Below are positions 4,721 to 63,998 of a DNA stretch of 64,000 nucleotides, one piece after another. The position numbers and the translations under genes are program-made. Source of the stretch: Tequatrovirus NIC06P2; the sequence record OZ035760.1; one strand, written 5' to 3'. Below the pieces are notes generated by a model that saw only the letters and a list, made by a program, of their open reading frames with translations, ran no database searches and was not told the origin of the DNA. Within the stretch, counting starts at the first letter, position 1; each line of letters opens with the position of its first letter.

Positions 4721-6135
<1,415 letters not shown>

Positions 6136-58768: not shown

Positions 58769-60196
58769 CTAAAATTTTAATTCATTCGCCAAAGCATCTA
58801 ACTGAGCTCGAGTCGATTCGTTTCTTTGATAGCGATTCTGTTCAGCCTGAATCTGTTGTGAACCTGCTACCTCACTCACTTCAGTTGGAGTAGAATCTTG
58901 TTCAATTTCTACCCATTTCTGATTTCCTTTTTGAACACCCATCAAAAACTTATTCCACTTATTCTTATCACCATATCGTGATTTGATTTGCTTAATGAGT
59001 TGTTGTTCAGCAGCTGCTAGCTCCTCGGTTTCAATGACCGCAAGCATAAAATCAGCTGTTGCTGGAAGACCAGCAGATTCTGCGATATCACTCATGTTAA
59101 CATCAGAAGAGTCCCAAGCTTGTTTACCAACCTGTGCTGCAGTCCAAAGAACAGTTTCGGTTTCAACAGCCAGAGCACGCAATTCCTCTGCGATAGCTTT
59201 AACAGTTGTGTAACTATTTTCTGAATAAACTCTAATGCGGCAAGATTTACAAATACCTAGATAGTCGACAATAATGATTGTTGGAACAAAATTCTTCTTG
59301 AGCTTCAATTCGTTTAAAAGTGATCGAAATGTATTAGCGTCTGCTCCACCAGTAGGATATTGCTTAACGATTAAACGACCAAGGGTAGATTTCTCACGCC
59401 ATTTTTCCATTTTTCCTTTATATTCAGCGTAAGAAATATGTCCATCATCAATATCGTCAAGAGAAACATCGAGCATGTTAGCATCAATACGTTTAGCACA
59501 GACTTCTTCTGCCATTTCCATGGAGATATAAAGAACGTTATGACCAAGCTGCAAATAATCTGCTGCTAATGAACAAAGTCCTAATGATTTACCAACGTTA
59601 ACGCCAGCCATTAAAACGTTCAGTGTTCCAGTCTCAGCTCCGCCTTTAGTAATTTTGTTTAGAATTCTGAGTTTAAATGGAACCTTACGAGCTTTATTCA
59701 TATAAGATAGCCAACGCGCTTCATAGTCATCCATCCAATCATGACCAACGTAGCTATCAAATGAAATTGATAATGCTTGGCGCATGATGTCAGGAATAGC
59801 ACCTACATCTGGCATTTTCTTATTTCGTTTTTCCGGAGGAAGCTCAGCATTAGTTTGAATTTCGATTATTTTAGACGTAGCATTAAACATCGCCCTTTGC
59901 TGAACATATTTTTCTGTTTCTTTTATTAACCAACTGTGGTCTTCCGGAGAATCAGCCAGTTTTGAAATAAGTGTTTTTACACCAGAATATTCTGTTTCAG
60001 TAAATGAACTATTTTCTAATGCAACATTTAACGCATTAATAGATGGAACGCTATGGTACTCATTAACATGAGATTTAATTAATTTGAATGTATTTTTAGC
60101 TGGACCACTTTCAAAATATTCTGAATCCATATATGGCCAAACTTTTGAAAAATAAGCTTGATCAAATATAAGATGAGAAAGAATAATTTCTACCAC
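58769..60196 (-). CDS. 41: replicative DNA helicase gp41 (475 aa)
   Basis: DnaB-family motifs (Walker A GVNVGKS; ...IIIVDYLG...) and T4 gp41 length. Confidence 0.95.
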   Translation of the reverse strand: MVEIILSHLIFDQAYFSKVWPYMDSEYFESGPAKNTFKLIKSHVNEYHSVPSINALNVALENSSFTETEYSGVKTLISKLADSPEDHSWLIKETEKYVQQRAMFNATSKIIEIQTNAELPPEKRNKKMPDVGAIPDIMRQALSISFDSYVGHDWMDDYEARWLSYMNKARKVPFKLRILNKITKGGAETGTLNVLMAGVNVGKSLGLCSLAADYLQLGHNVLYISMEMAEEVCAKRIDANMLDVSLDDIDDGHISYAEYKGKMEKWREKSTLGRLIVKQYPTGGADANTFRSLLNELKLKKNFVPTIIIVDYLGICKSCRIRVYSENSYTTVKAIAEELRALAVETETVLWTAAQVGKQAWDSSDVNMSDIAESAGLPATADFMLAVIETEELAAAEQQLIKQIKSRYGDKNKWNKFLMGVQKGNQKWVEIEQDSTPTEVSEVAGSQQIQAEQNRYQRNESTRAQLDALANELKF

Positions 60197-60205
60197 ACTT
60201 ACTCC

Positions 60206-60568
60206 TTAAAAGAATTTAAACTTTTTCTTTGACCTTTTATTAAATGCATCTTGTAGTTGCATTGTAATACATTTTTCTACATGAGGAGCTAACTCAGCTT
60301 TTCTTTCTTGGTCAAGAACAGCAAAGTCCATTACGACTTTTCCATCAACCCAATCTAATTTTGTCACATACACAATGTGTGTAGAACCATCTTCTAGTTT
60401 AATGACAATCTCCTGGATAACATTTTCCATAGCGGATTTAATTATCTTAAGAGACTCATTAAAAAGACGTTCTTTTCTTTCTTCTTCCCCCTCCGAAGAG
60501 GGGGATTCATCGATAATTTCTAGATCTAAATCTAAATCATCTTTATTCATTAAATTCTTCCATATCAC
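60206..60568 (-). CDS. 40: gp40 head vertex assembly chaperone (120 aa)
   Basis: Size and position between uvsX and 41. Confidence 0.6.
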   Translation of the reverse strand: MIWKNLMNKDDLDLDLEIIDESPSSEGEEERKERLFNESLKIIKSAMENVIQEIVIKLEDGSTHIVYVTKLDWVDGKVVMDFAVLDQERKAELAPHVEKCITMQLQDAFNKRSKKKFKFF

Positions 60569-61724
60569 TTAACTGTTCGAGGTCAGTTTCTAAATCAGCA
60601 GCTGATTTACTTTTACTTTCTGGAGATTTAAATTTTTCAACCTTTGAGTTAATCAATTCATCAACTTCAGCTTCAACAATTTCATTACTATCAATAGCAC
60701 CTAACTGATAAGCACGTTTAATAGCATCTCGGAATGGTTGATGCTTAAATAAAGGACCCCAGAATGTAGTGCAGTTGGTATCTTTTGCACGCCAAGATTT
60801 TTCTTCGCGAATCATCTCACCGGTTTCTTCATCAAGAAATTCACGGGCATACCAGCCATTTTTAGGTTTTACTACAAATCCTAATTCTAGAGCCATATCT
60901 AACAATCCAGAATAAGGATCGATACCACCGTCAAATTTAACATCAATAAAGAATTTACTTTTTTCTTTAACGGTACGAGATTTTTCTACATTTAGAACAA
61001 ATTGATACCCCTGAAGATCAGAACCATCTTTAATTTGACGTTTACCGATAATGAATACAGTATCAGCCGAATACATTACGCCTGTACCGCCTGTCATCAC
61101 GGTTTTACTAAACATTTCAATTGTTTCAATTGTATGGTTAACCGCAACGCACGGAATATTTTTAATGCTAAAATAAGGAGTAACAATACGGAATAATGAC
61201 TTCAGTGATTTAGCACGAGTCATATCTGCCACAGATTTTTCATTCAAGGCATCTTCCGTTTCTTTCTTAGAAGCCATATTACCGATTGAGTCGATGAATA
61301 CAATAACCTTTTCACCACGCTCAATAGTTTCAAGCTGATTCACCATATCAATTTTCAGCTGTTCAACTGATTGGATTGGCGTATGAATTACTCGTTCCGG
61401 GTCAACACCCATAGACTTAAGATAAGCCGGAGTGATACCAAACTCTGAGTCATAGAACAAACAGATAGCATCAGGATACTTATTCAAATAAGCTGCTACC
61501 ATTGTCAGTGACATATTAGATTTAAAATGTTTAGAAGGCCCTGCGAAAATAGTTAAACCAGACTGCATACCACCATCAATCGCACCGCTAATTGCAATAT
61601 TAAGCATTGGAATTTTTGTACGAATTACATCCTTTTCATTAAAGAATTTAGATGTAGTCAGTTCAGCAGTCATTTTAGAAGTGGAAGCTTTAATCAAACG
61701 GGATTTTAAATCTGCAATAGACAT
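60543..61724 (-). CDS. uvsX: UvsX recombinase (RecA-like, 393 aa)
   Basis: Walker A GPSKHFKS, matches T4 UvsX; acidic C-terminal tail. Confidence 0.95.
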   Translation of the reverse strand: MSIADLKSRLIKASTSKMTAELTTSKFFNEKDVIRTKIPMLNIAISGAIDGGMQSGLTIFAGPSKHFKSNMSLTMVAAYLNKYPDAICLFYDSEFGITPAYLKSMGVDPERVIHTPIQSVEQLKIDMVNQLETIERGEKVIVFIDSIGNMASKKETEDALNEKSVADMTRAKSLKSLFRIVTPYFSIKNIPCVAVNHTIETIEMFSKTVMTGGTGVMYSADTVFIIGKRQIKDGSDLQGYQFVLNVEKSRTVKEKSKFFIDVKFDGGIDPYSGLLDMALELGFVVKPKNGWYAREFLDEETGEMIREEKSWRAKDTNCTTFWGPLFKHQPFRDAIKRAYQLGAIDSNEIVEAEVDELINSKVEKFKSPESKSKSAADLETDLEQLSDMEEFNE

Positions 61725-61801: not shown

Positions 61802-62644
61802 TTAATCAACTGCTATTGGATGAATAGCATTAAACTTATGAAATGCTTCTGATTTTTCTTTACGAGAAACACACATGCGAAGAACCTTTAATGGCTCGTC
61901 TTCTTCACCCAACGATTTTCGTTTTTCAATATTAGAAGTTTTCCAACGAGCTTGCTCTGGAAACTCTCTATTGATTTGCTCAAGCGCTCTATTATGTTTA
62001 GAATTACTGCGAATTGAACTGCACCCGCCAGGAGCTTGTGCTTTTCCAGATACAACCAGATATTTGAACAAGGCCAAATGCGGATAACCTTGATTAATTA
62101 AATTGAGAAATGCATACATATCTTCGCATAAATCAATTTTTCCATACCCAATTTGTTCTGTGGTAAGTTTTCCGAGGTCATACCATGTATTCGTGAATCC
62201 GTATGAATTTTCACGATAATTACCCCAAGATGAAGTAATTTTAAAAATTGGTAGACGAGCATGACCGTGATAATACCCGCAATCCATGGCATCTTCAACG
62301 TATTGAATCAATTCATAGAACTGTTCACGAGTTAATTGATTAATTTTATCTACACATCGGCGATCATCTCTTTTTCGCATTGAACTCATACGAATAGTAG
62401 TATCATCGTCAATCATCCAGATTCGTTGACCTGCATACATATCAGTAATTGCTTTACGAGTACCGGCAATTCCGTTTACATCATCAGGAATAGTTACAAT
62501 TTTAGCTTTAGACCCATAGGCATCATAATAAGCTTTTTCTTCATGTTCACGTACTACGATATGAGGTTCATAATCAGTCGGAAACATATCAAGGGCAGAA
62601 ACTGCCCCTACACGTTGATAGCTCGGAATTACGAATTGAATCAT
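61802..62644 (-). CDS. putative GT-A fold glycosyltransferase at the T4 beta-gt position (280 aa)
   Basis: DxD-type motif (WMIDDDTT); sits between uvsX and gene 42 where T4 carries beta-gt but does not resemble it; consistent with a T2/T6-type enzyme. Confidence 0.55.
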   Translation of the reverse strand: MIQFVIPSYQRVGAVSALDMFPTDYEPHIVVREHEEKAYYDAYGSKAKIVTIPDDVNGIAGTRKAITDMYAGQRIWMIDDDTTIRMSSMRKRDDRRCVDKINQLTREQFYELIQYVEDAMDCGYYHGHARLPIFKITSSWGNYRENSYGFTNTWYDLGKLTTEQIGYGKIDLCEDMYAFLNLINQGYPHLALFKYLVVSGKAQAPGGCSSIRSNSKHNRALEQINREFPEQARWKTSNIEKRKSLGEEDEPLKVLRMCVSRKEKSEAFHKFNAIHPIAVD

Positions 62645-63282
62645 TTAAGTGCCTTACATTTGTCAAAATGGTATCTTGTCATATTTGGCCCACGTCCTTT
62701 TAGTCCGCAATGCGGACATATTTTTTCTATCAAATTATGAGGTTTTCCTTTACGATTTTTAGACATCGTTTCTTTAATTATTTTAGCTTTTTCTACGCCA
62801 AAAATTTCTTCATAAGTTTTACCAGAATTTTCCTTGGCTCGATTTATAATTCCATATGCCTGCTCATTTTTACCATACATTGGATTACCTTCGCCTTTCA
62901 TTCTTTTAGAATGATCAGGACGCTTGATTCCACGAAAGGCATTTCCGCACTTATATCTTTCTTCTGGAGATAGTTTTTTACCGTACATTCCATTTAATTT
63001 GCCTGGAAAACTTCCTCCCCATGCTTCATTCTTTAAATTATATGAATCCGGACAATTAGCAGCATCTAAACAAGTTAAAATAATTTCTTCAACCTGTCTA
63101 AACATTGGTCCTTCATATAATATTTCTTTATTAAAGAATTTTATTCCATATTTCTTTTTAGCATGTTGCCAAACTACACCCGAACCATCATAATTCGGGT
63201 TGTGACCATCATGACTTCCTATATACCACTTTTTAGTTTTAGGATGTTTATACTTATAAACATGTGGCACATTTACTTCCAT
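62641..63282 (-). CDS. GIY-YIG homing endonuclease, Seg-like (213 aa)
   Basis: N-terminal GIY-YIG motif (HVYKYKH...KKWYIGSHDG), NUMOD3-like repeats (NGMYGKKLSPEER; GEGNPMYGKNEQ), C-terminal CPHCG zinc finger. Confidence 0.7.
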   Translation of the reverse strand: MEVNVPHVYKYKHPKTKKWYIGSHDGHNPNYDGSGVVWQHAKKKYGIKFFNKEILYEGPMFRQVEEIILTCLDAANCPDSYNLKNEAWGGSFPGKLNGMYGKKLSPEERYKCGNAFRGIKRPDHSKRMKGEGNPMYGKNEQAYGIINRAKENSGKTYEEIFGVEKAKIIKETMSKNRKGKPHNLIEKICPHCGLKGRGPNMTRYHFDKCKALK

Positions 63283-63998
63283 TTTCCAGTATAATCCTTT
63301 TTAGCAATATGAGTCTCACCGGTGTTCCACCAATGGTCAACTAAATAAAACTGATTTTCGTACACATGAAGACTTCCAACGTTCCATATAATAGAACCTG
63401 CTTTATATTGCCGCGATGGGTCGCCTGCATTCAAATCAGATACTAATTTATATAGTACGTATTTTTGCCAAGCATAATCATTACGATAGCCTGCCCAGCA
63501 ATCATTGCTTCTCATGCTAACAACCGCATTGACTTTCTTATCACGAATCAGGTACTGTACTGTATTAGTACACATGAAATCTGACATGCCATCTTTATTG
63601 TAGTCAAACTGCATAGATGGACGAGTATAAATCATGATACCACGTCGAGAATCAGGATTTTGACCAAGTTCAGCTAAACACATATCATACTGGGCATAGT
63701 TATCTTCTGACCAGATAGCCCAACCATAATTTGAGTTAATTTCGCCTTTAGAAGATGCTACCTGTTGCCAAATCTTCGGTGTTTCACCCGGAATATCTTT
63801 AACAAACAGACTTTGAGACTTGTACCATTCAAGTTCACGCTGAATGTATTCATCATTAAGAGCGCCAAAAATAAACGGTTCATCTGCTACAAATGATGCG
63901 CCAATAATTTCAATAGTTTTAACACCAGTTTTATCAACTACGAAATCTTTTTCCTTTAATGCAGTTCCCAAATAAAAACGGATTTCTTCAACTGTCAT
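63273..63998 (-). CDS. 42: dCMP hydroxymethylase gp42 (at least 241 aa; N-terminus may extend past the window edge)
   Basis: Thymidylate-synthase-like fold with T4 gp42 sequence (MTVEEIR...); the ORF start is 2 nt from the window end. Confidence 0.9.
   Translation of the reverse strand: MTVEEIRFYLGTALKEKDFVVDKTGVKTIEIIGASFVADEPFIFGALNDEYIQRELEWYKSQSLFVKDIPGETPKIWQQVASSKGEINSNYGWAIWSEDNYAQYDMCLAELGQNPDSRRGIMIYTRPSMQFDYNKDGMSDFMCTNTVQYLIRDKKVNAVVSMRSNDCWAGYRNDYAWQKYVLYKLVSDLNAGDPSRQYKAGSIIWNVGSLHVYENQFYLVDHWWNTGETHIAKKDYTGKWK

Follow-up and report, generated by a model that had tools for sequence, protein, structure and literature searches.

A probable mobile Seg-type homing endonuclease gene between gene 42 and ba-gt of a T2-like Tequatrovirus, with a linked foreign tract in gene 42

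We analysed the junction between gene 42 and uvsX in a 64,000-nt stretch of T2-like Tequatrovirus DNA (Tequatrovirus NIC06P2, record OZ035760.1); this whole stretch is referred to as the window, and all positions are counted along it. Transcription at the locus runs from gene 42 through an open reading frame (ORF) of 213 amino acids, here called seg, and a second ORF of 280 amino acids, ba-gt, to uvsX. The three genes on which the analysis centers are as follows.

63273..63998, minus strand: gene 42, deoxycytidine monophosphate (dCMP) hydroxymethylase (Pfam Thymidylat_synt, E=7.7e-15; aligns to gene 42 of T2, T6, and T4)
62641..63282, minus strand: seg, free-standing Seg-like GIY-YIG homing endonuclease gene, 213 amino acids (phrog_314 match; similarity to SegA; absent from T2 and T6)
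61802..62644, minus strand: ba-gt, beta-glucosyl-HMC-alpha-glucosyltransferase gene, 280 amino acids (identity to T2; phrog_842; Pfam TAGT PF20691)

The 5' end of gene 42 is cut off by the end of the window, its true start lying about 15 nt beyond. The ATG of seg (63282-63280) sits 10 nt inside gene 42, whose TAA stop codon occupies 63275-63273, and the seg TGA (62643-62641) overlaps the ba-gt ATG (62644-62642) as ATGA. An alternative seg start that does not overlap gene 42, the GTG at codon 5, was rejected because FL33 and RPN226 read GCG at this position. The coordinates, the ORF lengths, the WMIDDDTT motif in the 280-residue protein, and the overlapping start and stop codons given in an original prediction for this DNA were all reproduced in the ORF list. 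That prediction placed the endonuclease gene downstream of the transferase gene, which holds only in plus-strand coordinates; in the direction of transcription, seg lies upstream.

Comparison with related phages makes it likely that seg is a mobile insertion established by homing, a judgment that we make jointly with the gene identities, the co-conversion, and the immunity allele proposed below. T2 and T6 lack seg and present a precise empty site (...TGGAA|ATGATT...). In T2, gene 42 ends in GAG TGG AAA TGA, with the TGA overlapping the ATG of ba-gt; in the window, an insert of about 632 bp separates TGGAA from ATGATT; it both brings a new gene 42 stop (TGG AAG TAA) and restores the ATGA overlap with ba-gt. 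Approximately 77 phage records carry seg at a protein identity of at least 95%, and the same number span the whole 2-kb locus, out of roughly 595–630 Tequatrovirus records that match it. Among five seg-carrying phages, the mean pairwise nucleotide difference is 1.1% in seg, compared to 4.1% and 3.5% in the 5' and 3' parts of gene 42 and 4.6% in ba-gt, so that seg is four-fold less diverse than its flanks. The earlier proposal of insertion by homing is supported by the precise T2/T6 empty sites and the sporadic distribution, and the foreign tract at the 3' end of gene 42, with its sharp limits, argues in the same direction, together with the low diversity of seg relative to its flanks.

Several carriers have damaged copies. 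In Shinka, a frameshift in seg (locus L013, 1180-1800) removes the C-terminal zinc finger, and in REP2/REP3 and PYps5T seg is split into two ORFs. Such degenerate copies suggest ongoing decay and fit the usual cycle of invasion and decay. Separately, some T2-like phages, such as CE1 (L010, 275-940) and LH2 (L024, 2932-3597), have both ba-gt and, between it and uvsX, a segA gene of the T4 type (about 98% identity to T4 SegA). Two different Seg genes can therefore occupy two different sites within the 42-uvsX segment.

The presence of seg is accompanied by foreign sequence in the 3' end of gene 42. Considering sites that are fixed and distinct between the five seg-carrying phages and T2, T6, and T4, we found that all 31 fixed differences are confined to 63512..63297, where they define the following features.

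63297..63512 (216 bp), minus strand: seg-linked tract, putatively co-converted, containing all 31 fixed differences between carriers and non-carriers
63486..63512, minus strand: patch A, 17 fixed differences in 27 nt; R-S-N-D-C-W-A-G-Y here versus R-S-N-D-V-V-F-G-F in T2, T4, and T6
63351..63360, minus strand: patch B, seven fixed differences; ENQ here versus SRH in T2, T4, and T6

Within patch A, the Arg and Ser codons switch family from CGC TCA to AGA AGC. The other fixed differences comprise two sites (63420 and 63416) and five in the tail; the last 45 bp of gene 42 differ as well between phages with and without seg. Upstream of 63525, gene 42 of the window is 94.7–96.6% identical to T2, T6, and T4 and 95.3% identical to the seg-carrying phage AugustSocin, whereas from 63525 to the end of the gene these values are 78% and 99.6%, respectively. 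In ba-gt, the window is 97.5% identical to T2 and 97.2% to AugustSocin. Database-wide, identity to the gene 42 3' end of the window is bimodal, with about 85–90 records at 90% or above and about 410–420 near 83%. This comparative signature suggests that the gene 42 tract and seg were co-converted. In BYEP02 (locus L025, 1348-2165), a phage that lacks seg and has a window-type patch A, the record gives two ORFs for gene 42, and the interval from patch A to patch B is about 77 bases longer, which may be a duplication or an assembly problem.

The same pattern is found in Klebsiella phages of the genus Jiaodavirus. ValerieMcCarty03 has the order gene 42, seg homologue (69% identical), ba-gt homologue, uvsX, and its gene 42 reads CWAGY and QNQ. 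By contrast, JD18 lacks seg; there, as in T2, gene 42 runs over the first ATG of the ba-gt frame, and its two patches read VVFGY and ERH. Ten Klebsiella records match the patch B region at all, and the records with a 60–80% identical seg homologue also number ten. By this sequence comparison, the same gene 42 tract and seg cassette separates carrier from non-carrier Jiaodaviruses. Another Klebsiella record, vB_KpnM_GF (locus L006, about 2400-2600), has a deletion from the 3' end of gene 42 (cut after ...NIIWNAPSP) to the last 30 or so codons of the seg homologue, leaving a seg remnant fused next to ba-gt; as the record is a partial genome, this deletion may be an assembly artefact.

The 213-residue protein itself matches phrog_314, 'homing endonuclease' (E=1.8e-31). 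To place its domains, we used the conservation in an alignment (A1) of 30 of 64 collected homologues together with an AlphaFold2 model of the protein; three modules are predicted.

63007..63264, minus strand: GIY-YIG catalytic domain, residues about 7-92 (A1 conservation, profile match to 1LN0, AlphaFold2 model and Foldseek)
62863..63003, minus strand: linker with NUMOD3-like repeats, residues about 94-140, GKLNGMYGKK... and GEGNPMYGKN... (NUMOD3 at 18 bits; 19 of 30 homologues)
62656..62727, minus strand: CCHC zinc-finger-like module, residues 186-209, CPHCG...RYHFDKC (conservation and model)

The GIY and YIG motifs take the form V8-Y9-K10 and Y20-I21-G22, with Y9 conserved in at least 90% of the 30 homologues and Y20 and G22 invariant; Y31, G33-S34-G35, E65, and N82 are likewise invariant or at least 90% conserved. 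E65 and N82 align with the ERE and GYN positions of 1LN0, which correspond to the catalytic E75 and N90 of I-TevI. The model has a mean predicted local distance difference test score of 86, exceeding 90 over residues 11-80, and its top Foldseek matches in the PDB are 1MK0 and 1LN0, the I-TevI catalytic domain (probability 1.00, target template-modelling score 0.63, root-mean-square deviation 2.8 Å). At ranks 4-6, Foldseek also returned weak matches to PD-T4-3 of E. coli (9u75, 9u7u), a restriction endonuclease specific for 5-hydroxymethylcytosine; this probably reflects only the common GIY-YIG-like core. In the C-terminal module, modeled as a beta-hairpin and a helix, C189, C192, H205, and C209 are invariant across the 30 homologues. 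Among named T4 proteins, SegA is 31% identical over 167 residues (E=1e-8), while the best tblastn match in T4 is SegC (35% over 62% of the query), and genes annotated as SegD were also found.

Other searches were less clear, and some of their results weigh against this assignment. The Pfam GIY-YIG models PF01541 and PF19835 have no match in the protein at E≤0.1, the best PDB match of the A1 profile, to 1LN0, is weak (E=0.017), and the catalytic Arg27 of I-TevI has no aligned counterpart, its helix falling in an insertion relative to the seg family. SegA, an active enzyme, likewise lacks this helix and has an equally short YIG-x10-Y.GSG segment. NUMOD3 scores 18.0 bits over residues 125-138, under the 20.4 cut-off, NCBIfam returned a sub-threshold match to TIGR01453 (group-I-intron endonuclease), and a single-sequence phmmer search of PDB sequences gave nothing meaningful, I-TevI being recovered only by the profile and fold searches. 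Pfam matches do occur among the 30 homologues: NUMOD3 in 19 (best E=4.5e-10), SegE_GIY-YIG (PF19835) in 10, and GIY-YIG (PF01541) in six. The ratio of nonsynonymous to synonymous substitution (dN/dS) is 0.12-0.24 between distant homologues and 0.12-0.36 within Tequatrovirus, so that the protein is under purifying selection. As modeled, then, the 213-residue protein is an ordinary Seg-type GIY-YIG endonuclease with NUMOD3-like repeats and a CCHC finger. The original call of a GIY-YIG/NUMOD3 protein stands in its first part (VYK...YIG, residues 8-22), whereas NUMOD3 is only sub-threshold in this protein, though recognized in the homologues.

We also determined the genomic context of eight distant homologues with 44–65% identity. 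All eight lie directly downstream, on the same strand, of a Thymidylat_synt-family gene, the two genes overlapping by up to 17 nt or standing up to 60 nt apart, and all eight upstream genes bear the MRSND...[ND]D signature of gp42-type hydroxymethylases. The downstream neighbors vary and include a T4-type glucosyltransferase (MHG19, L022), inosine monophosphate dehydrogenase (IMPDH), a helicase, a nucleoside triphosphate (NTP)-transferase, and ORFs of unknown function; in another case, a dCMP deaminase is followed by a family A DNA polymerase. As the hydroxymethylase gene is the only constant neighbor, it is the likely location of the recognition site. In Yersinia phage MHG19 (L014, 3001-4746) and in L022 (2501-4293), the seg homologue stands beside a T4-type (PF09198) glucosyltransferase rather than ba-gt; the link of the endonuclease is to gene 42 and not to a particular transferase.

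These observations lead us to propose the following course of homing. In a mixed infection, the enzyme would cut a seg-free phage in its gene 42 region, and phage recombination would repair the break from the seg-carrying genome, copying seg together with the last 230 bp or so of gene 42. The mobile unit would thus measure about 870–880 bp (63512..62641), and the gene 42 allele found here, marked by RSND-CWAGY in patch A and ENQ in patch B, would be an uncuttable immunity allele. We consider it likely that these elements hold together, namely the identity of ba-gt, a Seg-type enzyme, homing without an intron, and a unit of this size with its immunity allele, with cleavage and homing deduced from sequence. 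The cut would fall at or beside patch A, approximately 230–240 bp upstream of the insertion point. This placement is the candidate we favor, though with somewhat less than even confidence; a cut elsewhere in gene 42 or at the junction is a possibility to be taken seriously, if a doubtful one, and a complete lack of homing activity is improbable.

Patch A is singled out in the first place by its position at the outer limit of the foreign tract, which is sharp, as would be expected if conversion proceeds from the break toward the endonuclease gene. A pattern of this kind, with conversion extending from a distant break, is seen for SegF and SegG. Patch A encodes the R-S-x-D loop, with the residues after the conserved R-S-N-D, and this loop is homologous to the td/thyA stretch holding the I-TevI/I-BmoI homing site. 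Moreover, five phages without seg keep a stretch of window-type sequence that in every case takes in patch A and ends at differing points on the way to the insertion site: LH2, pSe_SNUABM_01, and SP21535 have a window-type patch A and are T2-type from 63420 onward, BYEP02 matches the LH2-type chimera, although the BYEP02 record has gene 42 in two parts, and CE1 is window-type through 63336, i.e., over patches A and B, with an empty junction. The search returned no record above 93.5% identity for the reciprocal chimera, T2-type in patch A and window-type in patch B. No seg-carrying genome therefore bears a T2-type patch A. A phage with both seg and a cuttable patch A would cleave its own DNA.

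The best-surviving alternative is a homing enzyme that cuts near its own insertion point, at the junction of the gene 42 stop and the ba-gt start, or in patch B and the last 80 bp or so of gene 42. In that case, the insertion itself would confer immunity by interrupting the site, as with intron-encoded enzymes, and patch A would be a hitch-hiker. We regard this as possible but doubtful. The insertion does split the junction sequence, and the divergence of the final 45 bp of gene 42 between carriers and non-carriers is in keeping with a target there. However, the eight distant homologues combine a constant gp42-like upstream gene with unrelated downstream partners, so that a conserved target spanning the junction is unlikely. 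In the phages without seg that keep window-type sequence, patch A is always retained and patch B never occurs alone, a polarity that points to the patch A end. In addition, characterized Seg enzymes cut inside the neighboring gene and not at the insertion site; the targets of SegF and SegG are genes 56 and 32, respectively (PMC2988022).

Other points count against an immunity allele centered on patch A. The distant carriers L017 and L021 keep ATG CGC TCA AAT GA as in T2, and this T2-like RSND coding, which also speaks for a cut at the junction, means that there is no universal immunity sequence; similarly, no universal immunity motif was found in the gp42-like genes beside the distant homologues, xWAG[YF] being restricted to the closer ones. 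The five recombinant phages are few and possibly of common ancestry, and they could have arisen by ordinary crossing-over. Instead of being the target, patch A could be donor sequence that hitch-hiked. Searches of the literature, subscription-only papers excepted, turned up no description of a homing endonuclease at gene 42 or at a hydroxymethylase gene.

A different possibility is that seg is a vertically inherited, inactive or domesticated relic and that the divergence of the gene 42 3' end is ordinary T-even mosaicism. T-even genomes are indeed highly mosaic, and the frameshifted or split copies in Shinka, REP2/REP3, and PYps5T would suit a relic. Nonetheless, this explanation is improbable: the dN/dS values indicate selection on the protein, the residues of the catalytic domain are kept across the 30 homologues, seg is far less diverse than its flanks, the pairing of the gene 42 tract with seg recurs in a second genus, and synteny with a gp42-like gene is seen in eight of eight unrelated genome contexts.

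We likewise give little credence to the idea that seg mainly serves the phage, by excluding T-even competitors or by promoting the amplification or exchange of the adjacent modification gene under host defense, with homing as a by-product. According to a 2026 paper, SegB promotes amplification of anti-defense loci in T6 (PMC13096335). Here, seg and its homologues adjoin ba-gt in Tequatrovirus and Jiaodavirus, or a T4-type glucosyltransferase in MHG19 and L022, and conversion tracts could therefore carry modification genes. Several distant homologues, however, adjoin non-modification genes (IMPDH, helicase, dCMP deaminase), and the sequence offers nothing that separates such a role from plain selfish homing.

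Returning to the reading that we prefer, homing with a cut in gene 42, we tentatively extend it to a clade. It is conceivable, though we would not count on it, that seg belongs to an unrecognized group of free-standing GIY-YIG endonucleases specialized on pyrimidine hydroxymethylase genes (gp42-type, thymidylate-synthase fold) in very different phages. They would cut the codons of the catalytic R-S-N-D loop, at the position in the fold where I-TevI and I-BmoI cut thymidylate synthase genes, and, as their conversion tracts extend into the following gene, would help shuffle ba-gt and beta-gt between T-even phages.

The second half of the locus is already known biology. The DxD motif of the 280-residue protein lies at the following position.

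62402..62410, minus strand: DxD motif (DDD, D79-D81, in WMIDDDTT), read from the translation

The homology search that had been called for identified the protein as a T2-type ba-gt. It is identical to the T2 ORF in the same position at 275 of 280 residues (98%, five substitutions), with an identical DxD region, and it matches phrog_842 'beta-glucosyl-HMC-alpha-glucosyltransferase' (E=3e-89), in agreement with the original guess of a T2/T6-type glucosylation gene. Nucleotide identity to T6 and T2 is 94.9–97.5%, the upper value being that of T2, and dozens of about 98% identical Tequatrovirus records label the gene ba-gt or glucosyl transferase. D79-D81 are kept in the Klebsiella phage homologue, too. 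The gene lies in the 42-uvsX interval where T4 has beta-gt, and comparison with T4 beta-gt revealed no similarity, as had been anticipated; the transferase is thus "alternative" in that it differs from the T4 enzyme, yet it is not novel but the classical T2/T6 enzyme. Position, length (280 residues), sequence, and DxD region are shared with T2/T6 ba-gt, and beyond the five substitutions the difference is one of arrangement, seg preceding ba-gt here whereas gene 42 overlaps ba-gt directly in T2 and T6. The Pfam TET-associated glycosyltransferase model (TAGT, PF20691) matches over its full length and above the gathering score, though modestly (37.5 bits versus 27.5; residues 3-207 against profile positions 2-205 of 205), and the phage enzyme serves a gp42-based hydroxymethylcytosine (hmC) pathway, not a TET/JBP oxygenase. 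An NCBIfam scan gave no match. By sequence, the 280-residue protein is the known T2/T6 ba-gt, and this half of the locus holds nothing new.

The enzyme would add a second glucose, in beta-1,6 linkage, to alpha-glucosyl-hmC, producing gentiobiosyl-hmC instead of the beta-glucosyl-hmC of T4. T2 and T6 DNA contain beta-1,6-glucosyl-alpha-glucosyl (gentiobiosyl) hmC, the product of homologous ba-gt enzymes (PMC6024577), and gentiobiosyl-hmC has been found by liquid chromatography–mass spectrometry in related Tequatroviruses (PMC13390438). The acceptor supplier alpha-gt is encoded by the seg-carrying relative AugustSocin (98% identical at the locus), and the T4 gene order puts it outside the window; it counts against this assignment that the window has no alpha-gt and that the gentiobiosyl end product is taken from relatives. 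That the protein uses another sugar or another acceptor than T2/T6 ba-gt is very improbable, for although single-sequence phmmer against PDB sequences found no solved structure of a relative, only the five residues noted above differ from the T2 protein, the DxD region is the same, and the relatives yield gentiobiosyl-hmC; an arabinosyl or other novel transferase was rejected on the same identity to T2.

The N-terminal region of ba-gt shows several peculiarities. A stable hairpin, GGGGCAG-UUU-CUGCCC(U), lies at 62590-62610 (minus strand) within codons 12-19, and a longer stem pairs the AUG of Met20; its 81-nt context has a folding energy of -19.5 kcal/mol (z=-2.1). The Klebsiella Jiaodaviruses carry a similar GGGCAG-TAA-CTGCCC hairpin, labeled as a terminator in some records. 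In T6 (MH550421; locus L003, about 4950-4980), there is an in-frame TAG at codon 10, and JD18 (locus L009, about 2262-2313) has a 1-nt deletion in the same stretch. The T6 and JD18 records start ba-gt at Met20, yet residues 3-19 belong to the Pfam TAGT match. The stop codon in T6 is odd, as T6 is the phage with the most gentiobiosylation.

The surroundings of the locus follow the T4 order, and the minus strand holds every gene across 58.7-64.0 kb.

60543..61724, minus strand: uvsX recombinase, downstream boundary of the locus (Pfam T4_UVSX_C, E=4.7e-39, and RecA)
60568..60206 and 60196..58769, minus strand: ORFs at the T4 gene 40 and 41 positions, 3' of uvsX (T4 gene order)

A scan of the locus for sigma-70 promoters found eight sites versus 9.2 expected from shuffled sequence, T4 middle and late promoters not having been scanned systematically. 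In gene 42, a private substitution at 63452 changes Asp to Tyr (YVLYKLV here versus YVLDKLV in 11 of 11 other Tequatrovirus alleles compared) and creates TATAAATT, which departs from the consensus of T4 late promoters at a single position; the substitution may be genuine or due to a sequencing error.

With respect to its consequences, ba-gt implies that the phage should carry T2/T6-type gentiobiosyl-hmC DNA, which bears on the type IV restriction enzymes and DNA glycosylases able to attack it and is textbook biology. Specialist interest rests only on the clade-wide association with gp42-type genes and the possible parallel to I-TevI. The association in all eight contexts suggests a selfish nuclease lineage that tracks one enzyme fold, parallel to the intron endonucleases of thymidylate synthase genes, and seg would be a further example for the question of how conserved active-site codons come to be targeted by free-standing and intron-encoded endonucleases. 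The natural carriers, empty sites, and partial recombinants make seg homing and the mapping of its target directly testable.

Public records already label seg 'homing endonuclease' or 'site-specific intron-like DNA endonuclease', and among the endonucleases listed in a 2010 review of mobile elements in T4, none is assigned to gene 42 (PMC2988022). While the transferase is known, seg is a new, unnamed, and uncharacterized Seg-type enzyme, orthologous to no named T4 seg gene. Like T4 SegA, a member of the Seg family (SegA-G), it is a free-standing GIY-YIG gene between conserved genes of the 42-uvsX segment, and it shares with SegA the YIG-(10 residues)-Y.GSG-...KKYG architecture in addition to the sequence similarity given above. 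It differs from SegA in its insertion site (42/ba-gt rather than beta-gt/uvsX), in its target, which is uvsX for SegA (PMC2988022) and predicted to be gene 42 here, and in its C-terminal CCHC zinc finger, which SegA lacks. As with SegF and SegG, the gene lies 3' of an essential gene, carriers and non-carriers have different sequences in the adjoining tract, in line with co-conversion, and the proposed cut distance of 230–240 bp is comparable to their distant cleavage sites; cleavage and marker exclusion are here deduced from sequence comparison. I-TevI and I-BmoI are intron-encoded, in contrast to the free-standing seg, and the identity in the catalytic domain is only about 20%; seg has NUMOD3 repeats and a terminal zinc finger, with no helix-turn-helix detected. 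Even so, seg shares their catalytic fold, 1MK0 being the top match, and the genes that host these endonucleases are all of the thymidylate-synthase fold family; the RSND codons are a hypothetical target of seg.

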